Shown here: positions 15,695 to 62,923 of the stretch, piece by piece
Position numbering within the stretch: position 1 is the first letter of the stretch
Layout of the letters: the number at the start of each line of letters is the position of its first letter
DNA from: an uncultured Desulfobacterales bacterium
GTDB taxonomy: Bacteria > Desulfobacterota > DSM-4660 > Desulfatiglandales > JALVZP01
Direction: 5' to 3'
DNA: 64,000 nt
Assembly (NCBI GenBank): GCA_964513995.1
Contig: CAZEOQ010000004.1
Coordinates: 23,719 to 87,718 of the forward strand
The notes under the pieces: model-generated
Databases searched by the model: none
What the model saw: the letters and a program-made list of their open reading frames with translations, nothing else
What the model was told of the DNA's origin: nothing
Position numbers and translations under genes: made by a program

Positions 15695-16423
15695 TTATAT
15701 TACGACAAATATCAAAACAAGGCTTATTACCATGGCATATATTGCTGTTGACTGTGATACTGCCTGTCCTATAAGCATTACTCTCGTAAGAGTTGCTGCT
15801 ATTTCTGGATTTCTTGCAATCCCTTCACAGCTTTTTCCAGCAGGTATTCCTGCACCTATTCCAGGTCCTATTGACGCAAGTCCTGTGCTCAAGCCAGAGC
15901 TGAGAAGTGCTGCCCATGCAGGATGAAAAGGAACGCCTTTCAGATTTACAAACATAAGCACCAGAGATATGACCATTGCAAATATTGCAGGGGTCTGATC
16001 AACTGCAGATCCTATAAGCATATTAGTAATAAGTTTTCCTGTTACAGCAGGCTGCCTGCTTATTCCAACACAGCATTCTGCTGCAGGAAATCCTCCTCCA
16101 ATACCAGGACCAAAAGCACCAAGTCCCATACATATTCCAGATCCAATAAGTGCAAATGCTTTAAGGAGTGGAGCACCTGAAACATCTAAGAAAAGAAGGA
16201 GGATGGCTATGACAAGTGCAAATATTGCAGAAGTTTCTGCCATTGCCTGTCCTACGAGCATTGCTTTTGCAATGTCTCCTCCTTTTTCAGGTCTTATAGA
16301 GATTGCCTCATTTGCCTTTCCAGCAGTATATCCTTCTCCAAGTGCAGCACCTATTGCACCAAGTCCCATGCAGAGACCTGCACTCAGAAGCTTTGAAAGG
16401 TTTACTGCTGCCTGAACATCCAT
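15695..16423 (-). CDS. Triplicated (three-hairpin, six-helix) F-type c subunit with one conserved ion-binding Glu
   Basis: 242 aa made of three tandem c-subunit repeats of ~80 aa. Each repeat has a GxGxGxG helix 1 and a helix 2. Glu is present in repeat 1 (AMAE63TSAIF). The aligned position is Gln in repeat 2 (AVDQ143TPAIF) and repeat 3 (AVSQ224STAIY). Confidence 0.8.
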   Translation of the reverse strand: MDVQAAVNLSKLLSAGLCMGLGAIGAALGEGYTAGKANEAISIRPEKGGDIAKAMLVGQAMAETSAIFALVIAILLLFLDVSGAPLLKAFALIGSGICMGLGAFGPGIGGGFPAAECCVGISRQPAVTGKLITNMLIGSAVDQTPAIFAMVISLVLMFVNLKGVPFHPAWAALLSSGLSTGLASIGPGIGAGIPAGKSCEGIARNPEIAATLTRVMLIGQAVSQSTAIYAMVISLVLIFVVI

Positions 16424-16424
16424 C

Positions 16425-17102
16425 TTACTTCACCTGAACAGCAATGTATACAAGGGTCAAAAGTGTGAATACAAGTGCCTGAATCGTTCCAACAAAGAGT
16501 CCAAAAAACAGGTTTAAAATAGGAGGAAGAAGAAGACTGTATACGAGATATGAAACAACGATTATGATTATTGCTCCTCCCATTATGTTTCCAAAAAGAC
16601 GGAATGAGATAGAGATTACCTTGGAAATCTCTCCTATTACGTTAAGTGGTGCCATTATGAAGATAGGTTCAAGATAACCTTTTATGTATTCCTTAAAACC
16701 TTTTTCCCTTATTCCAGCATACTGTGCAATAAAGAATCCCATAATTCCCATACCAAGAGGAGTATTCAGATCTCTTGTAGGTTCTGAAAGCTTTGGAATT
16801 ATTCCAAGCCAGTTAGATACAAGGAGGAACATAAAAAGTGCGCATATAAGTGGAAAATACTTTTTTCCAAGCTCTTCGTCCTCAAGTGTATCAATGCATA
16901 TGTCATAGAATGCAGTAATAAGGAGTTCTGCAACTGTTTGAAATGGATTTGGGATTATTCCCATCCTTTTTCTTGCAAGAAGAGAAAACACAATAAGTAT
17001 TCCCATAACGATCCATGTCATTATTATTGTCTTCACATTGAACCTTAGGACTATTCCAAAAAGGTTTACCTTCAGCTGAAGTATCTGAGTAAAATCTTCC
17101 AT
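16425..17102 (-). CDS. atpB: F-type ATP synthase a subunit
   Basis: 225 aa and polytopic. The conserved stator-Arg helix is ISISFRLFGNIMGG, and the C-terminal helix is LFVGTIQALVFTLLTLVYI. Confidence 0.9.
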   Translation of the reverse strand: MEDFTQILQLKVNLFGIVLRFNVKTIIMTWIVMGILIVFSLLARKRMGIIPNPFQTVAELLITAFYDICIDTLEDEELGKKYFPLICALFMFLLVSNWLGIIPKLSEPTRDLNTPLGMGIMGFFIAQYAGIREKGFKEYIKGYLEPIFIMAPLNVIGEISKVISISFRLFGNIMGGAIIIIVVSYLVYSLLLPPILNLFFGLFVGTIQALVFTLLTLVYIAVQVK

Positions 17103-17104
17103 GT

Positions 17105-17503
17105 TTATTCTCCCAGCAGAAGAGGTTTAAGAATTACATAATAGCCAAAAAGGACCATCTGAACAGAAAATATCCCTGCAACAGTTGCAGCGATATTAAA
17201 GCTTCTGTCCTTTATTGCAACTATTATTGGTATAGAAAGAACGGCATATCTTATAAAAAGAGAACCAAGAGAGAATGCTCCTGCTTTCCTCCTTTCTTTT
17301 CCCCATGAAAAAGGAAGGAATGAACACATAAGGATGAAGTTTATTACACTGAAACATGTTCCAAGAAGAAAACCTTTTGCTACAGAAGGCATACCTAAGA
17401 TAAGTGAAAAAAAAGAGACAGAAGAACCAAAAAGAAGAGCAAAACTGCATACCCTATTCTGAAATCTTTTTACTTCTTTTGCTGGAAACCTTTTTTCTTC
17501 CAT
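17105..17503 (-). CDS. atpI: ATP synthase protein I (AtpI-like small membrane protein)
   Basis: 132 aa with four hydrophobic segments, located directly upstream of atpB. The 50-nt overlap with the preceding gene leaves the start uncertain. Confidence 0.55.
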   Translation of the reverse strand: MEEKRFPAKEVKRFQNRVCSFALLFGSSVSFFSLILGMPSVAKGFLLGTCFSVINFILMCSFLPFSWGKERRKAGAFSLGSLFIRYAVLSIPIIVAIKDRSFNIAATVAGIFSVQMVLFGYYVILKPLLLGE

Positions 17504-17741
17504 CTTCTACTTCAAGAATCTGTCTATATGCAGTATAAGCTCCACCTATTATTCCAAGGATTATGAAGATCGTAGTAAAAACACCTTTTATATGAAGCCA
17601 CTTGTCTAAGTAATAACCTATTGCAAAGCAGAAAAGTATAGATCCTATTACTGTGAGTCCAAGCTGTGTAACGAGTATAAGGTATTCTGTCCATCTTTCT
17701 TTTTTTCTAATCTTTCTTTCTCCTTTTTTGTCTTGGAGCAT
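17454..17741 (-). CDS. AtpZ/AtpI-family small membrane protein (ATPase gene 1)
   Basis: 95 aa with two transmembrane segments. It shows the pattern LVTQLGLTVIGSILFCFAIGYYLDKWL...FTTIFIILGIIGGAY and is the first gene of the Fo cluster. Confidence 0.6.
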   Translation of the reverse strand: MLQDKKGERKIRKKERWTEYLILVTQLGLTVIGSILFCFAIGYYLDKWLHIKGVFTTIFIILGIIGGAYTAYRQILEVEDGRKKVSSKRSKKISE

Positions 17742-17763
17742 ATAAAAAATTATCTGTCAACTG

Positions 17764-19209
17764 TCAAGGAATTTTTTTTAGCTTATATCTTTTTGCTATT
17801 TTGTCATTAAGGATCAGAAGTAAAAATATAAGAATCCCCCACTGAAATATACATGTTCCAAGACTATACTTGCAAAAAGGATTCCACCATTTTTCAAAAA
17901 GCATAACTGCCTTATAGAACCACCAGAAGATAAGTCCAGCAAATTCCAGAGGAATAACATATTTGACCAATACATCAAACCAAGATCCAACCTTTATCTT
18001 CCTTTCATGTGGATTTATCAGATCCTTTCTAAAATCAGAAATACCATACCTTATTGAAGCAAGACAGAAGAAGAATCCACTTAAAAGAAGTCCTATTCCC
18101 CATACCCAATCCTGATTACACAAAAATTCTATGCTTATTGCTGAAGGGATTCCAAAAATGATTCCTAAGACAACAACAAAAACAACTGCCTTCCTTCTTT
18201 CATATCCCATATCCATAATAACTCTTACTGCAAGCTCTATCATTGCAATAAGAGAAGAAAAAGCAGCAAAAAAAAGAGAGATAAAAAAGATGGATGTAAA
18301 AAGATATGCACTGGTTATCTTTTTAAAAAGTGAAGGAAGCCAGATAAATGTAAGTCCTACATTTCCTGATGATACTGCCTTAAATGCCTCATCCTGAGGA
18401 AGGAATGAAAAAAGCGTGCAAAGGACAGCTATTCCAGCAAGTATTGAGGCAAGGTTATTTCCAAGTCCTATAATAAGAGAACTTGAAACGATGTCTTCAT
18501 TCCTTGAATATACTGCATATGTAAGGATAAGCCCCCATCCAGGTCCAACAGACCATGCAGACTGAGATATTGCTGAAAGCCATGTCTTATAGTCAAAAAG
18601 ATTTTCTATTTTTGGAAAAAAAAGGTATCTTATTCCTTTTATAGAATCAGGAAGAAAGATTGATCTTAGTGCAGCTATAAACATAAGAAGAAAAAGAAGT
18701 GGAATAAGTATCTTGTTTATCCTTTCTATTCCACCTTCTATTCCAAAGGCTACTACGAGTCCTGCCAAAAGAAAAGAGATTATGTGAAAAAAAAGAGGTT
18801 CAAAACCTGAGATAAACCTTTTCCAAAAGATTTGAGGATCTGAATGAAGTATACTGCTTTTTAATGAACCTATTGCGTATCTTATAAACCATCCTGTAAC
18901 AACACTGTAATAAAACATTATTGCCATTGTGCAGAATGCAACAAATCCTCCCATCCAGCAATACTGACCTCCACAGATCATTCCAAATGACTTAACAACA
19001 CCTGCCCTTGTCTTTCTTCCTATTGCAAATTCAAGGATGATTATTGGAATGGACCACATAAAAAGTGCTATCATCCATGCTATGAGAAAAGATCCTCCAC
19101 CGTTTTGTGCTGCAACTCTTGGAAATCTCCAGATATTTCCAGCACCAATTGCCATACCAAGTCCAGAAAGTATAAATCCCCATCTTGAAGTAAATGATTC
19201 CCTTTCCAT
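17764..19209 (-). CDS. Sodium-dependent transporter, NSS/SNF family
   Basis: RWGFILSGLGMAIGAGNIWRFPRVAAQNGGGSFLIAW is the NSS signature. The protein is 481 aa with about 11-12 transmembrane segments. Confidence 0.9.
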   Translation of the reverse strand: MERESFTSRWGFILSGLGMAIGAGNIWRFPRVAAQNGGGSFLIAWMIALFMWSIPIIILEFAIGRKTRAGVVKSFGMICGGQYCWMGGFVAFCTMAIMFYYSVVTGWFIRYAIGSLKSSILHSDPQIFWKRFISGFEPLFFHIISFLLAGLVVAFGIEGGIERINKILIPLLFLLMFIAALRSIFLPDSIKGIRYLFFPKIENLFDYKTWLSAISQSAWSVGPGWGLILTYAVYSRNEDIVSSSLIIGLGNNLASILAGIAVLCTLFSFLPQDEAFKAVSSGNVGLTFIWLPSLFKKITSAYLFTSIFFISLFFAAFSSLIAMIELAVRVIMDMGYERRKAVVFVVVLGIIFGIPSAISIEFLCNQDWVWGIGLLLSGFFFCLASIRYGISDFRKDLINPHERKIKVGSWFDVLVKYVIPLEFAGLIFWWFYKAVMLFEKWWNPFCKYSLGTCIFQWGILIFLLLILNDKIAKRYKLKKIP

Positions 19210-21678: not shown

Positions 21679-22953
21679 TTAATCTCCTTTTTTCACACTT
21701 AATGTCAATCCTTTAAAAGACCTTACCTTTACCTTATCTCCTGGCTTCAAATTTTCATCAGATTCTGCATTCCAATATTCCCCATGAACAAAGACAATAC
21801 CTCTTCCATCCTTCCAGCTTTCTACGATCCCTTCCTCACCAATCAGTGCTTCAAGACCTGTTTTTGGGCGTATTCTGTGAGCCTTTATTGCAAAAAGTGT
21901 TATAAGAAGGAAAAAAAGTGCAAACATAATTATTGTAGGAAACATTACCTTTAAAGATATTCTCATGTCTTCAAAAAGCATCATTGATCCAAGAAGAAGA
22001 GAGATGATTCCTCCAATTGTAAGAAGCCCATAACTTGTTACCTTTACTTCAAGTATGAACATGATTATTCCAAGTGCTATAAGGAGAAGACCTGCATAGT
22101 TTACGGGAAGTGTGTGAAATGCATAAAATGCAAGGATAAGAGATATTGCTCCTATTATTCCTGGAAGGATTGACCCTGGATGGGCAAGTTCAAAATAAAG
22201 TCCAGTAAGACCTATCATCATGAGTATATATGCTATGTTTGGATCACTTATTGTCTCAAGTATCTTATCTCTCAGATTTGGCTTAAAATAAACTACCTCT
22301 ATTTTCTCTGTTGAAAGTGTTATCTCACCTGAAGGAAGCTTTACTTTCATTCCATTTATCTTTCTGAAAAGCTCATCCATGTCTTTTGCAATGATGTCTA
22401 TTACATTCTTCTTAAGTGCTTCATCTGCAGTTATAGAAACACTTTCCCTTATTGCCCTCTCTATCCAACGAGCATTTCTTCCTCTCTGCTTTGCTATGCT
22501 TCTTGCATATGAAGCCATATCATTTACAATCTTTTCAGACATATTCCTTCCTATATCCCTTCCACCAACAGCTACAGGATGAGCTGCACCAATGTTTGTC
22601 CCTGGTGCCATTGCAGCAATGTGAGCAGAGATCGTGATTATTGCACCTGCTGATGCAGCTCCTGCACCACTTGGAAATACATAGCAGACTACAGGAACTT
22701 TTGAATTAAGTATTGCTTTTATTATCTGCCTCATAGATGTTGCAAGTCCACCAGGAGTATCTATCTGGATTACTACGAGATACGCCCCTTCTTTTTCAGC
22801 ATTCTTTATTCCTCTTACGACATATCCTGCTGATCCAGGGTTAATCGTTCCCGTAAGCCTTATTACAAAAGCTTTTTTAGAACAAAGTGCTTCTTTATTC
22901 AGAAATATCAAAAATAGCAAAAGAAGAATCTTATTTCTTAACATCAAGACCAA
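21679..22953 (-). CDS. NfeD-family membrane-bound ClpP-class serine protease (stomatin operon partner)
   Basis: There is an N-terminal ClpP-like domain (IDTPGGL...GAASAGA), a central transmembrane bundle and a C-terminal OB-like domain (VFVHGEYWNA...GDKVKV). It lies directly upstream of the stomatin gene. Confidence 0.85.
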   Translation of the reverse strand: MVLMLRNKILLLLFLIFLNKEALCSKKAFVIRLTGTINPGSAGYVVRGIKNAEKEGAYLVVIQIDTPGGLATSMRQIIKAILNSKVPVVCYVFPSGAGAASAGAIITISAHIAAMAPGTNIGAAHPVAVGGRDIGRNMSEKIVNDMASYARSIAKQRGRNARWIERAIRESVSITADEALKKNVIDIIAKDMDELFRKINGMKVKLPSGEITLSTEKIEVVYFKPNLRDKILETISDPNIAYILMMIGLTGLYFELAHPGSILPGIIGAISLILAFYAFHTLPVNYAGLLLIALGIIMFILEVKVTSYGLLTIGGIISLLLGSMMLFEDMRISLKVMFPTIIMFALFFLLITLFAIKAHRIRPKTGLEALIGEEGIVESWKDGRGIVFVHGEYWNAESDENLKPGDKVKVRSFKGLTLSVKKGD

Positions 22954-23632
22954 GCCTTTCCATAATCTTTTTCATATCTTCCCATACAAGCTTCTTTGCA
23001 GAAGGATTCCTGAGAAGGTATGCTGGATGAAATGTTGGCATAACAGGAATGTCATTATATGTATACCAGTTTCCTCTGTTTTGTGAAATCTTAAAGCTTT
23101 TTCCAATAAGTGCCTGAGATGAAATCCTTCCCAATGTGCATATTACCTTTGGTCTTATAAGCTTAAGCTGTGTTTTTAAAAAAGGAAAGCACGCCTTTAT
23201 TTCATCCTCCTGTGGATCTCTGTTTCTTGGAGGTCTGCACTTTACAACATTGCATATGTATACCTGATTTCTTTCAAGTCCCATTGCTCTTATAATCCTT
23301 GTAAGAAGCCTTCCTGCTTCTCCAACAAAAGGTCTTCCTTCCCTGTCCTCTTCTCTTCCAGGAGCTTCTCCAACAAAGACGAGATCTGCTTCAGGATTTC
23401 CTTCTCCAAAGACGATATTTTGCCTTTTCTGATAAAGTTTGCATCTTGTGCATCCTTCTATGTATCTTTTCAGCTCATCAAGTGTCTTTATCCTTTCAAG
23501 GACAGCTTCTTCCATTAGCTGATCTCCTGAAAGTGACTTTTTTGATAATGGAAAAGATTCAAGACCAATTTCTTTATAAAAATGAACAGTCTTTTTTAAA
23601 TCAGCAATTATTTCTTTTAACTCTTCTTTCAT
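22931..23632 (-). CDS. Uracil-DNA glycosylase, family 4
   Basis: CTRCKL...VFGEGNPEADLVFVGEAPGREEDREGRPFVGEAGRLL...HPAYLLRNP are family 4 UDG motifs, including the Fe-S cysteines. Confidence 0.85.
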   Translation of the reverse strand: MKEELKEIIADLKKTVHFYKEIGLESFPLSKKSLSGDQLMEEAVLERIKTLDELKRYIEGCTRCKLYQKRQNIVFGEGNPEADLVFVGEAPGREEDREGRPFVGEAGRLLTRIIRAMGLERNQVYICNVVKCRPPRNRDPQEDEIKACFPFLKTQLKLIRPKVICTLGRISSQALIGKSFKISQNRGNWYTYNDIPVMPTFHPAYLLRNPSAKKLVWEDMKKIMERLGLDVKK

Positions 23633-28089: not shown

Positions 28090-28119
28090 TTAAGGGATGC
28101 CCTTTAGGGCATCCCTTAA
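28090..28119. terminator. GC-rich perfect palindrome (13-bp stem, 4-nt loop) between convergent atpE and uvrA-like genes; possible bidirectional terminator
   Basis: The sequence is TTAAGGGATGCCC-TTTA-GGGCATCCCTTAA. It starts 6 nt after the atpE stop and covers the last 9 codons and the stop of the uvrA-like gene. A short T-run lies upstream on the + strand, with an A-run downstream (the complements flank it on the - strand), but no canonical U-tract directly follows the stem on either strand. Confidence 0.4.
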
Positions 28120-30522
28120 AAACCTTCCTGTCCAAGAATCCGAATTGCATACATCTTCTGGTCTTCCTTCTGCCATAATCCTTCCACCAGCTTCTCCTCC
28201 TTCTGGACCAAGATCTATTATCCAGTCTGCATGCCATATTACATCCAGGTTATGCTCTATAATGACAACAGTATTTCCTGAATCAACAAGACGGTCTATT
28301 ATTCTTAAAAGCCTTTTTATGTCAGAGTTATGAAGACCTAAGGTTGGTTCATCTATAAGATAAATTGTTCCAGAGCTTCCTTTTCCCATAAGCTCTTTTG
28401 CAATCTTCAGTCTCTGTGCTTCTCCTGCAGAAAGCTTATCAGCAGTCTGTCCAAGCCTTATATATCCAAGACCTATCTCTTTAAGTATTTCCAGTCTTTC
28501 TCTTATTGCCTTTATGTTCCTGAAAAACTCAAATGCCTGATCAACTGTCATATCAAGGACATCTGCTATATTCATTCCCTTATATCTTATCTCAAGGATG
28601 TCTTTCCTGAACCTTTTTCCACCACACTGATCACACCTTATGTATACATCTGGCAAAAAATCCATCTCAACCTTTATAACCCCTGCTCCCTTACATAGCT
28701 CACACCTTCCTCCTTCAGTGTTCAGACTGAATCTTTTTTCAGTAAATCCACGCTCTTTTGACTTTGGAAGGGCTGAAAAAAGCTTTCTTATATGATCAAA
28801 TATCCCACAGTATGTTGCAGGATTTGAACGAGGATTCTTTCCTATTGGAGACTGATCCACATAGATCACCCTTTTTACAGAATCTTCCCCTTTAATGCTT
28901 CTGTATTTTCCCTCCTTCATCCTTCCGCCATGAAGTCTGTTATAAAGAGCAGGATACAGTATGTCTCTAAGGAGTGTGCTTTTTCCTGATCCAGAAGGAC
29001 CTGTTATGCATGTAAATACTCCTAAGGGAATCCTTACATCTATTCCTTTGAGATTGTGTTCAGATGCTCCTTCAATGACGAGAAACCTTTCAGTCTTTCT
29101 TCTTTCCTTTTTCTCTTTTTTAAGAAAGAGATGTCTTCCTGTAAGTGTATCTGAACTTAGAAGCTCCTTAGGAGTTCCTTTAAATACAATTTCTCCTCCA
29201 TCCTTTCCTGAAGAAGGACCAAGCTCTATAATGTAGTCTGACTGCATTATTATGCTTCTTTCGTGCTCTACTATGAGAACAGTATTTCCAAGTTCTTTTA
29301 GTTTTTTTATGCTTCTTATAAGCTTTTCACATTCTTTTGGATGAAGACCAACAGTTGGCTCGTCAAGTATGTAAAGGATTCCAGAAAGTGATAAATTTAG
29401 CTGAGAAGAAATCCTTAATCTCCTTTCTTCTCCAAGAGAAAGTGTTGGAAGAGGTCTGTCAATTGAAAGATAGCCTATGTCAAGATCAATCATGCTCTTG
29501 AGCCTTCTTTTTATTTCATAAACCACCCTTTCTGCTATCTTTTTTTCATTTTCAGAGAGTTTTAACTTTTCAAAAAATCCGTAAAGTTCTTCTGCAGACA
29601 TAGAACAAAGATCAGTTATTGACCTTCCATCTATCCTTATACACTCAGAAATCTTCTTTAATCTCTTTCCATTACACTCTGGACATACATCATCATTGTA
29701 AGTCCCAATTCCTTTACAGAGAGGACATGCACCTTCTGGATTGTTAAAAGAAAAAAGAGAAGGTCTTATTTCAGGAAGGCTGAATCCACAAAGAGGACAT
29801 ACTGGTTTTTTTGAAAAAAATATCTCTCCTTCTCCTATAACATCAACAATAATGCTTCCATCAGAAAGAGAAAGTGCAAGTTCAACAGAATCTGTAAGTC
29901 TTTTTCTTATACCTTCCTTCAGTATGAGCCTGTCTATGAGCACATCTATTCTTTTTTCAGCTGTCTTTATTTCCTCATCCAAGGATCGTATTTCTCCACC
30001 TATCCTTACCCTTACAAAACCATCCCTTCTTAGTCTTTCTATGGCAGAATTAGGATCTTCACACAAAAGAGGAGAAAAAAGCTGAATTTTTTTTCCGTAT
30101 CCAAGATCAAGGATCTTTTCAACTATCTTTTCCAAGGTAAGAAAACTTATCTGAAGATTGCATCTTGGACAGAATACCTTTCCTATCTTTGAAAAAAGAA
30201 GTCTGAGATAGTCATATATTTGTGTTATTGTTCCTACAGTAGATCTTGGATTCCTCTGTGATCCTCCCTGAATAAGGATGCATGGTGGAAGACCTTCTAT
30301 AAGATCTACATCAGCAGCTTCTATCTGTTCTATAAAATAAGGACTTTTAAAGTAAGAAACAGAATCCATGAATCTTCTATATGCCTCACGATATATTGTA
30401 TCAAACACAAGAGAAGACTTTCCTGATCCAGATGGACCTACAACTGTTATGATCTTTCCTTTTGGAATATCAACAGAGATGTTTTTTAGATTATTCTCCC
30501 TTGCTCCCCTTATCCTTATCAT
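28090..30522 (-). CDS. UvrA-family ABC ATPase, short form (810 aa)
   Basis: MIRIRGARENNLKNISVDIPKGKIITVVGPSGSGKSSLVFDTIY is the UvrA N-terminus. Zinc modules are CPRC...CPLCG...ACPLCKGIG...CPEC. The second ABC half begins near residue 481 (LVIEGASEHNLKGIDVRIPLGVFTCITGPSGSGKSTL), with a C-terminal zinc module CELCKGAG...CDQCGG. Signature sequences are LSLGE and LSAGE. Confidence 0.85.
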   Translation of the reverse strand: MIRIRGARENNLKNISVDIPKGKIITVVGPSGSGKSSLVFDTIYREAYRRFMDSVSYFKSPYFIEQIEAADVDLIEGLPPCILIQGGSQRNPRSTVGTITQIYDYLRLLFSKIGKVFCPRCNLQISFLTLEKIVEKILDLGYGKKIQLFSPLLCEDPNSAIERLRRDGFVRVRIGGEIRSLDEEIKTAEKRIDVLIDRLILKEGIRKRLTDSVELALSLSDGSIIVDVIGEGEIFFSKKPVCPLCGFSLPEIRPSLFSFNNPEGACPLCKGIGTYNDDVCPECNGKRLKKISECIRIDGRSITDLCSMSAEELYGFFEKLKLSENEKKIAERVVYEIKRRLKSMIDLDIGYLSIDRPLPTLSLGEERRLRISSQLNLSLSGILYILDEPTVGLHPKECEKLIRSIKKLKELGNTVLIVEHERSIIMQSDYIIELGPSSGKDGGEIVFKGTPKELLSSDTLTGRHLFLKKEKKERRKTERFLVIEGASEHNLKGIDVRIPLGVFTCITGPSGSGKSTLLRDILYPALYNRLHGGRMKEGKYRSIKGEDSVKRVIYVDQSPIGKNPRSNPATYCGIFDHIRKLFSALPKSKERGFTEKRFSLNTEGGRCELCKGAGVIKVEMDFLPDVYIRCDQCGGKRFRKDILEIRYKGMNIADVLDMTVDQAFEFFRNIKAIRERLEILKEIGLGYIRLGQTADKLSAGEAQRLKIAKELMGKGSSGTIYLIDEPTLGLHNSDIKRLLRIIDRLVDSGNTVVIIEHNLDVIWHADWIIDLGPEGGEAGGRIMAEGRPEDVCNSDSWTGRFLRDALKGIP

Positions 30523-57033: not shown

Positions 57034-58000
57034 TTATCCTGAACTCCTCTTTTTCCAGGATGTCATAAAGGTGAATTATACCTTTTACACGACCAATATC
57101 GTCTATAATGACAAGATGAGTTATTCCATAAGATCCCATAATTGCCAGAGCTTCTGTTATACTCTTATTTTCGTCTATAATCTTTGGAGACTTTGTCATT
57201 ATCTGCTCTACCTTCATATCCTGTATTTCTCCATATTTGAGAAGAGCCCTTCTTATATCTCCATCACAGATTATTCCTGCAAGTCTTTCATCATCCTTTA
57301 CGACAACAGTTGCTCCTATCTTTTTTCTTTCAATCTCCTTTATTGCATCCTTTATAAGTGTTCCGACCTTTACTTTTGGAATCCTTTCTCCCCTGATCAT
57401 TATGTCCTTTACCCTGCTTGAAAGTCTTTCTCCAAGAGATCCTCCTGGATGATATCTCTTAAAGTCCTCCTTTGTAAAATTCCTTTTTTTCATAAGTGCA
57501 ACTGCAAGTGCATCTCCCATTGCAAGTGCTGCAGTGGTGCTTGCTGTAGGAGCAAGTCCCATTGGACATGCTTCCCTTTCTACTCCACAGTCTATTACAA
57601 TATCACACAGCTTTGCCATAGGAGAACTTAGGTCTCCAGTAAATCCTATAATCTTTACTCCCATCCTTTTCAGGATCGGAAGAATCCTGTTTATCTCAGC
57701 AGTCCTTCCTCCATTTGATATAGCAATGACTATGTCGTCCTTTGTAACCATTCCAAGATCACCATGAACAGCCTCTGCTGGATGAAGGAAGAAAGAAGGT
57801 GTTCCTGTGCTGTTCAGTGTTGCTGAAATCTTTCTTGCAACAAGTCCTGATTTCCCCATTCCAGTAAGGATTACCCTCCCACTTGAATTAAGTATTGCAT
57901 CTACTGCCTTCTCAAACTCATCACCTATCTTTTCTACAAGATTCAGTATTGCTTCTGCCTCAATTCTCAAGACCTGTTTTGCATTCTCAACCGTGCTCAT
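56999..58000 (-). CDS. kdsD: Arabinose-5-phosphate isomerase (KpsF/KdsD; SIS + CBS pair)
   Basis: The SIS domain shows GRVILTGMGKSGLVARKISATLNSTGTPSFFLHPAEAVHGDLGM. Two C-terminal CBS repeats follow. Confidence 0.9.
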   Translation of the reverse strand: MSTVENAKQVLRIEAEAILNLVEKIGDEFEKAVDAILNSSGRVILTGMGKSGLVARKISATLNSTGTPSFFLHPAEAVHGDLGMVTKDDIVIAISNGGRTAEINRILPILKRMGVKIIGFTGDLSSPMAKLCDIVIDCGVEREACPMGLAPTASTTAALAMGDALAVALMKKRNFTKEDFKRYHPGGSLGERLSSRVKDIMIRGERIPKVKVGTLIKDAIKEIERKKIGATVVVKDDERLAGIICDGDIRRALLKYGEIQDMKVEQIMTKSPKIIDENKSITEALAIMGSYGITHLVIIDDIGRVKGIIHLYDILEKEEFRINAGIPSKRSDS

Positions 58001-59664
58001 CCTGTAATTTTCTTACAGATCTGAAGATATTCTTTTGCCTGAGGAGAAAAAGGAAATTTTTCAAAACAGGATATGGCGTCCTGAATCCTTCCTTCATTCA
58101 TATAGCTTATTCCAAGACAGATATGAAGCTCCTCACTTTTTGGAAAATAACCTATCCCTTCTTCAAGGATCTCTATTGCTTCTTTATTCCTTCCCATCAT
58201 CTGAAGAAGTGATCCAAGTCCAAGATATGCCCTTTGATTTGGAGCATAACTTAAAGATGCTCTGTAAAGCTTTTCAGCAACCTTTTCCTTATCAGGAATG
58301 TTCATCCTTGAATAATCTCCATGACTGAATGTCATTGCAAGTCTTGAAAGAAAGTCTGCATGTTTTTCATAAAGGTCTTTTCTGTCTATAAGTAAAAGAG
58401 ATTCTGCAAATTCTGGAAGACTCCTGTAAAATTCATCTCTCAGTCTTTTTCCAAATTCAAGTATAAGCTCCTTTGAAAGACTTCTGTCAATCTCCCAATA
58501 CATGATCCCTTCAATCCTGTTCAGCCATACATCATCATCTATTCCAAGCTTTTTTATACTTTCATAAAGCTGTGTTCCAGGAAATATGTCAAGTATGTAA
58601 AACATACAGCTAAGAGGTTTTATCTTATGAATAAGATCTATCGTCTCATTTATTGTTTCCCAGCTTTCTGTTGGAGAGCCATATATGAAGTATGCCCTTG
58701 GAAGTATTCCGTATCTTCTCGTAAGATCAAATGCCCTGAGTATATTTTCTGTATCTAACGGCTTTCCAAGGATCTTTCTTATCCTTTCTGATCCACTTTC
58801 CACACCATAGCTTATCTGGATGCATCCTGCTTTTCTCATCCAAAAAAGGACATCTTCGTCAACACAATCAACCCTTGATATTGCATACCATGATATCTCA
58901 AGCTTCCTTTTTATTATCTCCTTGCATATGTCTATTGCCCTTTCTTTTTTTATCGTAAGATTGTCATCAGAAAAATAGAAAAAGTCTATTCCTTTTCTGT
59001 AAAGGATCTCTATTTCATCTACGAAATTTTTTGGAGACCTGAACCTTACCTTCCTTTCCCAAAAAAGTGGTGAACCACAGAATATGCAATTCCATGGACA
59101 TCCACGACTTGATATTACATGTCTGTATGTAAAGTATCTTGAAGGAATGGGAATTGAGTCAAGATCAGAAATGAGCTTTCTTTTTTCTGTCTTAAATGGC
59201 TTTCCATTCTTTCTAAAAGCAATCCCTTTTATCTCATGCTCTTTTTTCCCTTTTTCTATATCCCTTAAAAGCTCAAGAAATGTATATTCTGCTTCTCCAA
59301 GAAGGATATAGTCAACAGAAGGGAAATTCTTAAGGAAGTGCTTCCAGAGAAATGTTGCGCTTGGTCCTCCAAAAACAATCTTTATCTTTGGATCTATCTT
59401 TTTTGCAATCTCTGATATCTCTATTGCTGACCATCTGTTTGCATTAAGAACTGAAAATCCTATTATGTCAGGTCCTATCTTCCTTATCTCTTCTTCTATA
59501 TATCCCCTTTCCTTTTCCTCGTACCAGTTTATTATCTCAACATCATATCCATTTTCCTTAAGGACTGATGCAACATAGTATATCCCAATAGGAGGAACTT
59601 TTATGTCTTCTTCGTAAAATACCCTTTTTTCAAGGGGATAGGAATATACGAGGAGGATCTTCAT
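57997..59664 (-). CDS. B12-binding-domain radical SAM protein with C-terminal TPR repeats
   Basis: There is an N-terminal cobalamin-binding-like Rossmann domain (KILLV...PPIGIYYVASVL). The radical SAM triad is SSRGCPWNCIFCGS. The C-terminus carries about 3 TPR units. Confidence 0.8.
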   Translation of the reverse strand: MKILLVYSYPLEKRVFYEEDIKVPPIGIYYVASVLKENGYDVEIINWYEEKERGYIEEEIRKIGPDIIGFSVLNANRWSAIEISEIAKKIDPKIKIVFGGPSATFLWKHFLKNFPSVDYILLGEAEYTFLELLRDIEKGKKEHEIKGIAFRKNGKPFKTEKRKLISDLDSIPIPSRYFTYRHVISSRGCPWNCIFCGSPLFWERKVRFRSPKNFVDEIEILYRKGIDFFYFSDDNLTIKKERAIDICKEIIKRKLEISWYAISRVDCVDEDVLFWMRKAGCIQISYGVESGSERIRKILGKPLDTENILRAFDLTRRYGILPRAYFIYGSPTESWETINETIDLIHKIKPLSCMFYILDIFPGTQLYESIKKLGIDDDVWLNRIEGIMYWEIDRSLSKELILEFGKRLRDEFYRSLPEFAESLLLIDRKDLYEKHADFLSRLAMTFSHGDYSRMNIPDKEKVAEKLYRASLSYAPNQRAYLGLGSLLQMMGRNKEAIEILEEGIGYFPKSEELHICLGISYMNEGRIQDAISCFEKFPFSPQAKEYLQICKKITG

Positions 59665-62660
59665 ATCTGGAAAAGGCTGAGCTGTTTTGCAAAAATCTTT
59701 TTCTTCTTTTCCATCTTTTCACTTTTTACGATATCTTCTGGAATCTCTTTTATAAAAGGAGACGGAGAACTTTTTATGATCCTTCCATTAATCCTTCTCC
59801 TTTTTGCACATGAAAGTATAAGAAGGTCTTTTGCCCTTGTCATTCCTACATAAAAAAGTCTTTTTTCCTCTTCTTCTTCTGCATCCCTGTAAGGAATTAT
59901 CCCATCCTCCAATCCTATTATAAACACCACCTTCCATTCAAGTCCTTTTGATGCATGAATCGTCATAAGAGATACCCTGTCTCCTTTTAGCTGAAGGTGA
60001 TCAATTCCTCTTTCAAGCATTACTGTATCAAGAAAAGAAGACAGGTCATCCTTAAAGGAAAGGGCAATCTCTTTTATCCTTTCTACTGCCTTTTTTGAGT
60101 CTTTATCAAGTTCAATCCTGTGTGCTTCTATAATCCTGTCTATTACTTCACATACAGGACCAGATATCTCCACATCTGAAGCAGAAAGACCATTTTCTGA
60201 AATTATCCTTTTGTAGGAATTCAGAAAATAGCTGTTTTTGTAAAGCTTATAAAGAAGATATCTGCATATAAGATTTACTGGAAAGATCTCTCTTAGAGGA
60301 GTTTCTCCTGATCTTATATACGGAATTCCTGCCTTTTTTAAAGCCTCTTCCACAGGATCTCCAAGTGAGTTTATCCTGTAAAGAACAGCAATATCACTGA
60401 ATGAGATATTGTAGTTTTCATGACCAAGGACCTTTTTGCTGTCTAAGGAAAAATAAGAGATTCCTCCAATAAGCTTTTCTATCTTTTCTGCAACAAATCT
60501 TGCCTCTTCTTTTTCCGTAGAAAACTGAAAAATACTTATTTTTTCTCCTTCTTCCTTTCTCTCACACTCCATACTCTCTTTTTTCATAAATGCTGAAGCA
60601 GCCTTAAGGATCCTTTCTGTAGACCTATAATTCCTTTTTAAGACGATCTTTTTTGCTCCTCTGAAGTCTTCCTCAAATCTAAAGAAGTTTTCTCTTTCAG
60701 CTCCCCTGAATCCATATATTGCCTGATCAGGATCACCAATTGCAAATATCTTGCTTCCAGCCTTTGCAAGACTTTTCAGGATATCTACCTGAACTGAATT
60801 TGTGTCCTGATATTCATCAACAAATATGAATGGTCTTTTTTCTGAAAGCTCTTTAGAGACTTCAGGAAAGCTTTCAAGAAGTCTTTTTGTCTCAATCTCA
60901 AGATCATCAAGATCAAGCATGTTTAGCTCTTTTAGTCTTTTTCTATAATTCTCAAAAAAGCTTAAGACCTTTTTATCAGAAACCTCTTTTCCCCTTTTCA
61001 GGAATGGAATAAGGTCAAGAAGCTTTGTATAGAGCCTTTTTTCTGGAACTATCTCTTTCAGTATCTCCTGTCTTTCCCATTCAGAACATACTGTAAAGTT
61101 TTCTTCTATTCCAAGAAGAGATCCTTTTTCCCTAAGCAAAGAAAGACAGAATGAATGAAATGTAGATATCCATACATCTGAAGGACCAATAAGGTTTTCT
61201 ATCCTTTTTCTCATCTCTTCTTCTGCTTTTCTCGTAAATGTAAGAGCAAGGATCTGATCAGCTTTTGCAATCCCTGATTTTATAAGATGAGCAATCTTTT
61301 GAGTAAGTGTAAATGTCTTTCCTGATCCTGGTCCTGCAACTATTATGAGATGTCCTTCTTTGTGAAGGACTGCTTCTTTTTGTTCAGGATTTAGACCTTC
61401 TAAAACAGGGCTTTCTTCTTTTTTTTCAAATGAAAAAAGAAGAGCTTGTCCAGAAAGCTTCCTCTTTTCATCCTCATCAAATATCCTTATCTTTCCATAT
61501 TCTCCATCATATCCAGGTTTTTTTATGACCTGCTTTTTTCTCATCCTTCTTATTGCTTCTGCAAGAAGAAGTCCAGCCTTTTTCTCTATCTGATCTTCTG
61601 GAACTTCCATAAGTATAGATATCTCAGAACCAAATTCAGATATCAGCCTTTCATACTCATCCTTTACTTTTTTGCTTTCTGGACTGCTTTCCATTATCTC
61701 TGATATAATCTCGCAAAGAGGTATAAGATACCAGAAATCTTTTGTTATCTTTGGCTCGGTTCTGTCTGCAAGCTCATATACCCTGTGAAGAACACCAATT
61801 GTAAGAGGACTTCCACATACAGGACACCTATTTCCAAGCTTTATACTCTCTTTTGGATCAAGACATACATTGCATCTTCTGTGTCCGTCAAAGTGATATT
61901 TTCCTTCTTCTGGAAAGAATTCTATTGTCCCAAGAAATCCTTCACCTGTCTTCATTGCATGTATTATGTCTTTGTAGCTAAGATCTGTATCAAAAACATT
62001 TGCTTCTCTTCCGATTCTCATAAGTGAATGTGCATCAGAATTTGATACGAGAATGTATCTGTCAAGAGAAGATACAAGACGGTTCATTGGTGGATCTGAA
62101 GAAAGACCTGTCTCAAGTGCATATATGTGATCTTTAAGTTCTTCAAAGCATTCTTCAATGCTGTCAAATCCTGACATTGATCCAAAAAGAGAAAACCATG
62201 GAGTCCATATGTGTGCAGGGATAAGAAAGGACTTTTCTGATGTTTCTAAAACCAATGAAAGAAGTTCTTTTGAATCTATTCCAAGAGCTGGTCTTCCATC
62301 TGCTTCAAGATTCCCTATCCTTTCAAGTTTTCTGTTCAACTTTTCTGCTGTTTCTATGTCTGGAAGAAGAACAAGATGATGTATCTTTCTTATTTTTTTA
62401 TCCTTTTTATAGATACACCCTATTTCACCAGAAATAACAAACCTTACCTTTTCATTTCCTTCAACCTTATACAGCCCATCTTCTGCCTGTTTTAGTTTCT
62501 GTTTTAGCTCTGAAAGCCATGCAGGATGAGTAAAGTCTCCTGTCCCTATAACAGTTATTCCTTTTTTTTCAGCCCATTTTGCTATGTTTTCAGGAGTAAG
62601 AAGATGTGATGTTGCTCTTGAATATGGAGAATGGATGTGGAAGTCTGCAACAAATTTCAT
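59661..62660 (-). CDS. Fusion protein: N-terminal EndoQ-like PHP nuclease domain + C-terminal UvrD/PcrA-type SF1 helicase
   Basis: Residues 1-~425 show DFHIHSPYS, GTGDFTHP, IPAHIWTPW, SNSDAHS, GKYHFDGHRRC..C....CPVCGSPLTIGVLHRV and PGYDGEYGKIRIF. This matches the layout of archaeal endonuclease Q / TIGR00375 proteins. Residues ~430-999 show LNPEQKEAV, AGPGSGKT, VDEYQDTN, GDPDQAIYGFRGA, TIHASKGLEW and YVGMTRAK. Confidence 0.8.
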   Translation of the reverse strand: MKFVADFHIHSPYSRATSHLLTPENIAKWAEKKGITVIGTGDFTHPAWLSELKQKLKQAEDGLYKVEGNEKVRFVISGEIGCIYKKDKKIRKIHHLVLLPDIETAEKLNRKLERIGNLEADGRPALGIDSKELLSLVLETSEKSFLIPAHIWTPWFSLFGSMSGFDSIEECFEELKDHIYALETGLSSDPPMNRLVSSLDRYILVSNSDAHSLMRIGREANVFDTDLSYKDIIHAMKTGEGFLGTIEFFPEEGKYHFDGHRRCNVCLDPKESIKLGNRCPVCGSPLTIGVLHRVYELADRTEPKITKDFWYLIPLCEIISEIMESSPESKKVKDEYERLISEFGSEISILMEVPEDQIEKKAGLLLAEAIRRMRKKQVIKKPGYDGEYGKIRIFDEDEKRKLSGQALLFSFEKKEESPVLEGLNPEQKEAVLHKEGHLIIVAGPGSGKTFTLTQKIAHLIKSGIAKADQILALTFTRKAEEEMRKRIENLIGPSDVWISTFHSFCLSLLREKGSLLGIEENFTVCSEWERQEILKEIVPEKRLYTKLLDLIPFLKRGKEVSDKKVLSFFENYRKRLKELNMLDLDDLEIETKRLLESFPEVSKELSEKRPFIFVDEYQDTNSVQVDILKSLAKAGSKIFAIGDPDQAIYGFRGAERENFFRFEEDFRGAKKIVLKRNYRSTERILKAASAFMKKESMECERKEEGEKISIFQFSTEKEEARFVAEKIEKLIGGISYFSLDSKKVLGHENYNISFSDIAVLYRINSLGDPVEEALKKAGIPYIRSGETPLREIFPVNLICRYLLYKLYKNSYFLNSYKRIISENGLSASDVEISGPVCEVIDRIIEAHRIELDKDSKKAVERIKEIALSFKDDLSSFLDTVMLERGIDHLQLKGDRVSLMTIHASKGLEWKVVFIIGLEDGIIPYRDAEEEEEKRLFYVGMTRAKDLLILSCAKRRRINGRIIKSSPSPFIKEIPEDIVKSEKMEKKKKIFAKQLSLFQI

Positions 62661-62923
62661 CTTTCACTATCTTCTTCCTCTATTTCTAAGGATTCAAGAC
62701 TTATAGGCTCAATTTCAACCTCTTTTTTCTGTTCCTCTATCCTGAGTGAACTGAGGTCAACAGATTCAAGTTCTAATTCTTTTTCTTCCTTTAGCCAGTT
62801 TACAGAACCTTCCCTTGTTGGAAAAATTATAATCCTTCTTTTGACCTCTGAAAGATCCATTCCACAGTTAGGGCATACTTCATTTGAATCAAAACTTATA
62901 TAATTGCACTTTGGACACTTCAT
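62657..62923 (-). CDS. Small zinc-ribbon protein with an acidic tail
   Basis: [21 protein letters not shown] is a CxxC...CxxC ribbon. The C-terminal half is Glu-rich. ATGA overlaps occur on both sides. Confidence 0.5.

Follow-up and report, generated by a model that had tools for sequence, protein, structure and literature searches.

What does a gene at 59661..62660 (-), which reads as an endonuclease Q (EndoQ) joined to a UvrD/PcrA-type helicase, encode in an uncultured Desulfobacterales bacterium, and what could such a protein do? The gene lies in the window, i.e., the whole stretch of 64,000 nucleotides of contig CAZEOQ010000004.1 analysed here, and an earlier note on this DNA had described its product as an EndoQ-like PHP nuclease fused to a complete helicase. 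Our analysis identifies the fusion protein as a further member of a known, biochemically unstudied family of bacterial proteins that has been listed since 2016. New here are two clamp-binding-type motifs (one per module), the occurrence of the two modules as split as well as fused genes, a grouping of the partner helicases apart from housekeeping UvrD (a rough indication only), and a predicted H-C-C-C zinc site in the EndoQ module. Mechanistically, the most telling feature is the pair of clamp motifs, which are absent from the earlier note.

The EndoQ and helicase modules

The gene starts with ATG and continues in a single frame of 999 aa, with no internal stops, to the stop codon at 59661-59663. 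Each of the twelve motifs that had been quoted for it is found verbatim in the translation: DFHIHSPYS (residues 6-14), GTGDFTHP (39-46), PAHIWTPW (148-155), SNSDAHS (206-212), GHRRCNVC (259-266), CPVCGSPLTIGVLHRV (279-294) and PGYDGEYGKIRIF (382-394) in the N-terminal module, and AGPGSGKT (Walker A; 442-449), DEYQD (615-619), GDPDQAIYGFRGA (motif III; 642-654), TIHASKGLEW (motif V; 900-909) and YVGMTRAK (motif VI; 937-944) in the C-terminal module. The gene was also recovered in contigs of four independent hydrothermal-vent metagenome runs, which differ by substitutions only and show no indels, and the junction near 61400-61460 is bridged by single contigs. At least 120 full-length relatives with the same architecture, about 1000-1120 aa long and 49-60% identical, came up in a word-indexed search, most of them unnamed or annotated as 'UvrD-helicase domain-containing protein' or 'PcrA'; the highest identity of the fusion protein to anything else found was 62%. 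Split versions in other phyla might suggest that two neighbouring genes were joined here by an error of sequencing or assembly; this is ruled out, with a vanishingly small residual chance, because the four assemblies are free of indels and the many full-length fused homologues include finished genomes of cultured species, and the linker is conserved in frame across the family. The fusion is thus genuine, and neither a missed stop nor a frameshift produced it.

Residue conservation was scored in 46 close family members and 28 distant homologues from more than seven phyla, the distant set being drawn from Bacteroidota, Spirochaetota, Fibrobacterota, Omnitrophota, Planctomycetota, KSB1 and Desulfobacterota. 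The alignment of the 46 sequences also served as input for an AlphaFold2 model (mean predicted local distance difference test, pLDDT, of 80). The N-terminal module comprises the PHP catalytic domain (61914..62660 (-); residues 1-249, corresponding to residues 1-238 of Pyrococcus furiosus (Pfu) EndoQ in the alignment to structure 5zb8), a zinc-binding domain (61722..61913 (-); residues 250-313, from the same alignment and family conservation), and a helical domain at the C-terminal end (61452..61721 (-); residues 314-403, the region of Pfam PF27218, MJ0043_C), which includes a conserved GYDGEYG beta-hairpin loop at residues 383-389; precomputed MJ0043_C matches were seen in the proteins of relatives. 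Residues 5-402 align with residues 5-391 of the 400 residues of 5zb8 (E 1.4e-61), a second EndoQ structure, 7k30, was matched over residues 5-391 too (E about 1e-61), and the NCBIfam model TIGR00375 is covered from position 2 to 374 of 374 by residues 5-391 (E 3.6e-55), which bears out the claim of genuine EndoQ/TIGR00375 homology for the N-terminal module. When compared with 5zb8 by Foldseek, the model reproduced the three-domain EndoQ fold (PHP, zinc-binding and helical domains) with a template modelling (TM) score of 0.85-0.86 and a root-mean-square deviation of 3.0-3.3 A over about 400 columns at 35% identity. Other PHP families (PolX, PolC, CehA/McbA and PHP_C) gave marginal matches (E 0.006-0.007, against 1e-55 to 1e-61 for EndoQ) and were rejected as assignments.

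In Pfu EndoQ, the metal ligands are H8, H10, E76, H84, H139 and D193 (plus H195), zinc is held by four cysteines (C249, C252, C268 and C271), Trp144 serves as the wedge (PMC5961232), and H139, G169 and S171 form a steric filter which keeps thymine and adenine out of the base pocket (PMC8307549). The fusion protein presents H8, H10, E79, H94, H150, D209 and H211 as metal ligands, H150, G185 and S187 in the base pocket, W155 as the wedge, and R123 as the counterpart of Pfu R114, and all of these positions are invariant in the close and the distant homologues. The invariance of the pocket residues and the wedge tryptophan in more than 70 sequences argues for retained lesion recognition. The predicted zinc ligands are H260-x2-C263 and C279-x2-C282, an H-C-C-C site that was found in 29 of the 29 bacterial sequences examined, in contrast to the C-C-C-C site of Pfu EndoQ; histidine is itself able to ligate zinc. 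The zinc finger GHRRCNVC that had been pointed out is present, but its additional Cys266 lacks conservation across the family and is not among the predicted ligands. By alignment and by predicted fold, residues 1-403 represent a complete EndoQ in which all metal ligands and the residues of the uracil/hypoxanthine-selective pocket are intact.

The enzymes of P. furiosus and Thermococcus kodakarensis (5zb8, 7k30) share with this module the three-domain fold, the metal ligands, the wedge tryptophan, the pocket and a clamp motif placed after the helical domain, but they have Cys instead of His as the first zinc ligand and a PCNA-interacting peptide (PIP) box, QRTLLQYI, where the fusion protein has GQALLF; the latter, from a bacterial host, continues for about 580 further residues of helicase. 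The EndoQs of Bacillus pumilus and B. subtilis are bacterial and active, but they are stand-alone proteins of about 400 aa without a helicase; these short enzymes nick at deoxyuridine (dU), deoxyinosine (dI) and apurinic/apyrimidinic (AP) sites (cited in PMC5961232 and PMC8438529), and EndoQ activity therefore exists in Bacteria.

The C-terminal module (59721..61406 (-); residues 419-980) was recognized as a UvrD/PcrA-type helicase of superfamily 1A (SF1A) by Pfam, NCBIfam, alignment to PcrA, and Foldseek. It matched the structure of PcrA with an E-value of 2.6e-86 and that of UvrD as well; the Pfam model UvrD-helicase was matched over residues 423-666 (248 bits, E 2e-73), UvrD_C with 162 bits (E 4e-47), and AAA_19 too, whereas the NCBIfam models of PcrA, UvrD and Rep all cover residues 419-980, with 415, 308 and 342 bits, respectively. 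Helicase motifs Q, I, Ia, II (DEYQD), III, IV, V and VI are present, together with YRS at residues 678-680, and GPGxGKT, DEYQD, GDPDQ, YRS, KGLxW and YVxxTR are invariant across the family, confirming that the helicase part is intact. In the Foldseek comparison with UvrD-DNA complexes (TM score 0.74-0.76), the four-subdomain fold 1A/1B/2A/2B was recovered with a shortened 2B. On the basis of its sequence and modelled fold, the segment constitutes a complete ATP-driven UvrD/PcrA-type helicase, without being an equivalog of PcrA, UvrD or Rep. Because all catalytic residues are invariant, both modules look catalytically competent and under purifying selection.

With UvrD, PcrA and Rep (2is1, 1pjr, 1uaa) the module shares all seven helicase motifs, the 1A/1B/2A/2B fold and 27-33% identity, but it also differs from them. 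The 2B region (about residues 791-866) has 76 aa, approximately half the 144 aa of PcrA residues 388-531, which are skipped in the alignment. The alignment to PcrA ends at residue 648 of 724, and what remains of the fusion protein is a disordered, basic, lysine-rich tail of 19 residues (59664..59720 (-); residues 981-999) which carries the second clamp-type motif, QLSLF, and stands in for the C-terminal domain of PcrA/UvrD. Finally, residues 732-750 (60411..60467 (-); GGISYFSLDSKKVLGHENY) form a family-specific insertion that corresponds to a gap in the PcrA alignment and is predicted to be disordered (pLDDT <50); F737, S738, D740 and S741 are invariant in the close family only, and some of the partner helicases encoded by split genes carry FSHDSGR or FSRDSGR in this insertion. 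The loop [FY]SxDSG was considered as a signature of EndoQ-associated helicases and dropped, since it is not universal in the clade.

In a neighbour-joining tree, which is without support values, samples few stand-alone enzymes and can only be taken as a rough indication, the partner helicases, fused or split, clustered apart from 14 stand-alone UvrD/PcrA proteins. The stand-alone set includes a UvrD of 724 aa from the genome of an uncultured Desulfobacterium (L082), in which this conventional UvrD-type helicase (16008..18182 (-)) is encoded 5 kb from a fusion of 1068 aa; in that genome, the fused helicase is thus an extra, dedicated paralogue.

Clamp-binding-type motifs and the distribution of the family

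The first clamp-binding-type motif, GQALLF (61434..61451 (-); residues 404-409), lies in the linker (residues 404-418), and the second, QLSLF (59670-59684 (-); residues 993-997), at the C-terminal end; the consensus for binding to the bacterial beta clamp is QL[SD]LF. The linker motif GQxxLF occurs in all 46 family members and Q[LM]xLF stands at or near the end of 45 of them, the exception being a sequence annotated as partial by NCBI. Low model confidence (pLDDT <50) characterizes residues 404-416 and 983-999, the only other long segment of this kind being the one helicase insertion, and both motifs are accordingly placed in segments of predicted disorder, as is typical of short linear interaction motifs. 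A terminal Q-x-x-LF was present in 29 of 29 EndoQ-associated helicases but in none of the 14 stand-alone UvrD/PcrA proteins. In two spirochaetes of the termite gut, minor variants of the terminal motif were seen: QASLF followed by a tail of 14 residues, where other fusions stop at the motif (L020, a metagenome-assembled genome (MAG) of Treponema), and QPELF (L014).

At four loci of Omnitrophota and Planctomycetales (L013, L043, L045 and L047), EndoQ and helicase are encoded by separate, adjacent genes. The split EndoQ is an open reading frame (ORF) of 428 aa which ends in GQLSLF, HQMAFF, GQLSFF and GQLTLF, respectively, and the helicase gene follows directly, its protein ending in QQITLF, QMSLFE, QLNLFDL or QLTLFK. 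The linker motif of the fusion corresponds to the C-terminus of stand-alone EndoQs and lies exactly where the split ones end; by this alignment, it is what used to be the C-terminus of an EndoQ. The split operons indicate that EndoQ and helicase either were partners before the fusion or have been secondarily separated, and the pairing of the two activities in split as well as fused form points to a functional tie between them that is independent of the fusion. In archaeal EndoQ, the C-terminal PIP box binds PCNA with a dissociation constant of 55 nM, PCNA stimulates cleavage, and the stimulation is lost in a delta-PIP mutant; beta-clamp-binding consensus sequences have been noted at the C-termini of bacterial EndoQ homologues in the same study (PMC4858679).

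That study (Shiraishi et al. 2016, Suppl. Fig. S1) tabulated bacterial EndoQ homologues with the positions of their motifs, 10 of them short (405-464 aa) and 34 long (945-1244 aa), the list including proteins of Desulfovibrio vulgaris, Geobacter metallireducens, Zymomonas mobilis, Rhodothermus marinus and Rhodococcus (PMC4858679). The fusion protein fits the long form, which has the same architecture and a C-terminal QLxLF; with 999 aa, it is among the shortest, and it comes from an uncultured hydrothermal-vent host. One entry of the table, WP_020586011 of Desulfobacter curvatus (1088 aa, QLELF at 1084-1088), is our locus L010, which aligns with residues 1-981 of the fusion protein at approximately 39% identity. 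EndoQ proteins have been placed in three families by domain organization, two of them bacterial (Shiraishi et al. 2017, as cited in PMC5961232), and the long form probably corresponds to one of its bacterial 'families 2 and 3'; the helicase domain is likely to be named in that 2017 classification. Our literature search on EndoQ combined with UvrD, helicase, TIGR00375, MJ0043 and fusion, which covered Shiraishi et al. 2017 through its citation, found neither a naming of the helicase nor an assay of the long form; the bacterial EndoQs for which assays were found are the short ones of Bacillus. The view that the architecture was uncharacterised thus appears to hold for its biochemistry in the searchable literature but not for its existence, which had been on record since the 2016 table.

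An exhaustive HMMER scan of representative clusters at 50% identity, with the EndoQ module alone as query, matched 3932 clusters at E <= 1e-3, of which 1077 remained at E <= 1e-30, and the best 150 are nearly all either of 950-1250 aa (fusions) or fragments at contig ends. Among species-representative genomes of cultured bacteria, the fusion was found in Desulfobacter curvatus, D. vibrioformis, D. latus and Maribellus maritimus, and among MAGs in Draconibacterium, Mariniphaga, termite-gut Treponema, Fibrobacteres, KSB1 and others. The source bacterium of the fusion protein is recurrent in hydrothermal-vent and sediment metagenomes. The phrase 'as expected for a thermophile' does not account for the fusion: most of the family is mesophilic, with many members in Desulfobacter, Maribellus, Draconibacterium and termite-gut Treponema, and with Zymomonas, Geobacter and Rhodococcus in the 2016 table. 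A fragment of 334 aa in the 90%-identity cluster of the fusion protein (RLJ00700.1, on a contig of 2.4 kb) is labelled 'Candidatus Aenigmatarchaeota archaeon'; since all other evidence is bacterial, this contig was probably mis-binned.

Proposed repair mechanism and its alternatives

We lean slightly towards the interpretation that the fusion protein is a two-activity repair enzyme tethered to the sliding clamp, which would nick 5' of uracil, hypoxanthine or AP sites and then unwind from the nick. The beta sliding clamp might recruit the protein, by analogy to archaeal EndoQ, which is recruited and stimulated by PCNA. The EndoQ module would flip out uracil, hypoxanthine, xanthine or an AP site and break the phosphodiester bond just 5' of it, with a 3'-OH on one side of the nick and a lesion-bearing 5'-phosphate on the other, and the tethered helicase could then load at the nick. 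SF1A helicases travel 3'-to-5', and the most useful geometry would therefore be translocation on the intact complementary strand, by which the lesion-bearing 5' end would be peeled into a flap or gap; behind the helicase, a polymerase would extend from the 3'-OH, and repair would be completed by a 5' nuclease together with a ligase. A helicase acting after incision was already proposed in the original EndoQ papers (legend of Figure 10 in PMC4357722; PMC8438529), and the fusion family would have this helicase built in. In a more specific form, which we hold only tentatively and consider rather doubtful, the two motifs, one per module, would fill both pockets of one beta-clamp dimer and thereby hold the EndoQ active site and the motor to one and the same duplex, so that nicking is allosterically coupled to ATP-driven strand removal in a pathway independent of glycosylases and UvrABC.

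The logic resembles that of known systems. In the MutL, beta clamp and UvrD/PcrA system, a functional analogy, a clamp-binding endonuclease nicks and a UvrD-type helicase unwinds from the nick, but the nuclease fold is unrelated, the trigger is a mismatch instead of a lesion, and the two activities do not reside in one chain. Excision repair by UvrABC and UvrD may be likened to it as well, with nicking and UvrD-type unwinding that would here be carried out within one polypeptide. AddA, RecB and AdnB likewise join an SF1A motor covalently to a nuclease; theirs, however, is a C-terminal PD-(D/E)XK domain in heteromeric enzymes that act on DNA ends, whereas the fusion protein has an N-terminal PHP/EndoQ module predicted to act on internal lesions.

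Several points weigh against this interpretation. The TIGR00375 score of 187.9 bits is below the trusted cutoff of 326.6, and by the NCBI threshold the EndoQ module is, judged from its sequence, a divergent subfamily and not a TIGR00375 equivalog. None of the equivalog cutoffs for the helicase is reached either (PcrA 911, UvrD 1144 and Rep 951 bits), and the transfer of function therefore rests on residue-level and fold evidence, not on curated thresholds. The nicking and unwinding activities of the long form are predictions, and the direction and strand of unwinding relative to the nick are a guess. As the predicted TM score (pTM) of the AlphaFold2 model for the whole fusion is 0.56, its inter-domain geometry is unreliable and was not interpreted; among the structures searched, there was no solved structure with both modules together. 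Clamp binding is predicted from short linear motifs, and Q-x-x-L-F can arise by chance, although its conservation and its place at the terminus speak against this. Among the distant fusions, the linker motif decays to x-x-x-LF in those of Bacteroidota, Desulfobacter and spirochaetes, and it is unrecognisable in L046 and L020, suggesting that the internal site may come under less constraint once the modules are fused and may not work everywhere. Finally, bacteria could clear a 5' lesion by Pol I nick translation with no helicase involved, which leaves the need for a motor unexplained.

The order of events could also be reversed, with a clamp-riding helicase at or behind replication forks, as a scanner or accessory replicative helicase, moving along single-stranded or nascent DNA and feeding it to the EndoQ site, which would cut wherever it encounters uracil, hypoxanthine or an AP site. 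EndoQ acts on both single- and double-stranded DNA and has been proposed to work with the replication machinery through PCNA (PMC8307549, PMC4858679), two clamp motifs fit a replication-coupled scan, and helicases of the Rep/PcrA/UvrD type are, as is generally known, accessory motors associated with forks. However, cutting single-stranded template at a fork would produce a double-strand break, which is dangerous, and archaeal polymerases inhibit EndoQ at stalled forks (discussion of PMC6202378). We regard unwinding before incision as unlikely, although nothing in the sequence separates this order from nicking followed by unwinding. A role in defence, in which the protein would attack phage or other foreign DNA containing uracil or non-canonical bases and the helicase would make degradation processive, is distinctly improbable. 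Defence against phages with uracil-DNA was suggested for Bacillus EndoQ (PMC8307549), defence systems include UvrD-like helicases, and the PADLOC models GajB and DRT-helicase match the helicase module with E about 1e-85; their 291-297 bits compared to 415 bits for PcrA, however, reflect generic UvrD similarity, and PADLOC gave no match to the nuclease module. The resemblance to Gabija (GajA/GajB) is accordingly confined to the GajB-type match of the helicase, with no OLD-family nuclease of the GajA type among the annotated flanks. In addition, the neighbours are housekeeping genes (transaldolase, KdsD/KpsF, DapA-like and radical SAM), the annotated flanks in the window, L081 and L082 yielded no defence gene, the fusion is spread widely across phyla, and clamp motifs are typical of proteins of replication and repair.

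The PHP module might also lack lesion specificity altogether, making the protein a generic helicase-nuclease for ends or flaps, comparable to AddA/RecB in resection or to a PHP proofreading exonuclease. Other PHP domains, with which EndoQ is compared in PMC5961232, act as 3'-5' exonucleases or phosphatases, and AddA and RecB are among the weaker matches of the helicase module, but the match of the nuclease module is specific to EndoQ over all three domains and not to the PHP domains of PolX or PolC, and the base-discriminating pocket (Pfu H139, G169 and S171) is invariant along with the wedge tryptophan; this explanation has very little probability.

If nicking and unwinding are indeed tethered to the clamp, the fusion proteins would provide bacteria with a compact alternative route of excision repair, parallel to base excision repair, and if the occupation of both clamp pockets holds as well, a pathway for deaminated bases, so far unstudied, would be widespread in anaerobic and other bacteria. 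The customary picture of EndoQ is that of an archaeal enzyme, found largely in hyperthermophiles and with only few homologues in bacteria. The census puts the emphasis the opposite way, with more than 1000 EndoQ clusters at 50% identity and, among the closest ones, a dominance of the helicase fusion in at least seven bacterial phyla, to which the 2016 table adds further ones, mostly in mesophiles. To a specialist, the architecture will not be surprising; it is the size of the family, the two clamp motifs and the split/fused pairing which make a testable case, and cultured hosts (Desulfobacter, Maribellus and the species of the 2016 table) make the route directly accessible to experiment. Since EndoQ already serves as a reagent for dU detection when deaminases are assayed (PMC11234013), a nicking enzyme that brings its own motor for strand displacement might be of practical use as well.

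Gene neighbourhood and other repair genes of the window

The fusion gene is part of a co-directional string of genes and overlaps its neighbours by ATGA at both ends. Upstream are an ORF of 88 aa with a zinc ribbon and, beyond it, a transaldolase/FSA gene and a gene for a YHS-domain protein; downstream follow a B12-binding radical SAM protein with tetratricopeptide (TPR) repeats, KdsD/KpsF, a DapA-like protein, and a second radical SAM protein. The neighbourhoods were compared using the loci of the relatives P0007 and P0011. In L081, the locus of a relative with 58% identity, the order YHS, transaldolase, small ORF and fusion is kept and dap genes are among the neighbours, whereas in L082, which stems from a relative further removed, the fusion is flanked by a wholly different set of genes. 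The 88-aa ORF (62657..62923 (-)), which shares the ATGA overlap with the start codon of the fusion, encodes a protein with a CPKC...CPNC zinc ribbon at the N-terminus and a tail of acidic character. It has a homologue at the same place in L081 (37% identity, E 2e-20) but none upstream of the fusion in L082, no match was obtained for it in Pfam, NCBIfam or PADLOC, and it could be a lineage-specific accessory factor. On the other side, the B12-binding radical SAM gene with its C-terminal TPR repeats (57997..59664 (-)) is probably co-transcribed with the fusion gene, since its start overlaps the stop codon of the latter by ATGA; its weak PADLOC match to PDC-M51A (E 4e-16) seems to reflect a general resemblance among radical SAM proteins.

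Two further repair genes had been pointed out elsewhere in the window. The 'short UvrA paralog' (28090..30522 (-), 810 aa) is indeed short, because the alignment to TIGR00630 breaks off near query residue 277 and resumes near profile position 403 and approximately 125 residues are missing in the N-terminal half, but it is not a distant paralog: with 1009 bits, it passes the equivalog cutoff of 730 and qualifies as a bona fide UvrA. Its UvrB-interaction domain (PF17760) is present, and a match to the UvrA insertion/DNA-binding domain was not listed in the profile search. The family 4 uracil-DNA glycosylase (22931..23632 (-)) was confirmed, with 231 bits for TIGR00758 against a cutoff of 125 and a GExPG motif. 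The genome therefore encodes both a glycosylase route and an EndoQ route for uracil, as has likewise been reported for Methanosarcina acetivorans (PMC6202378).

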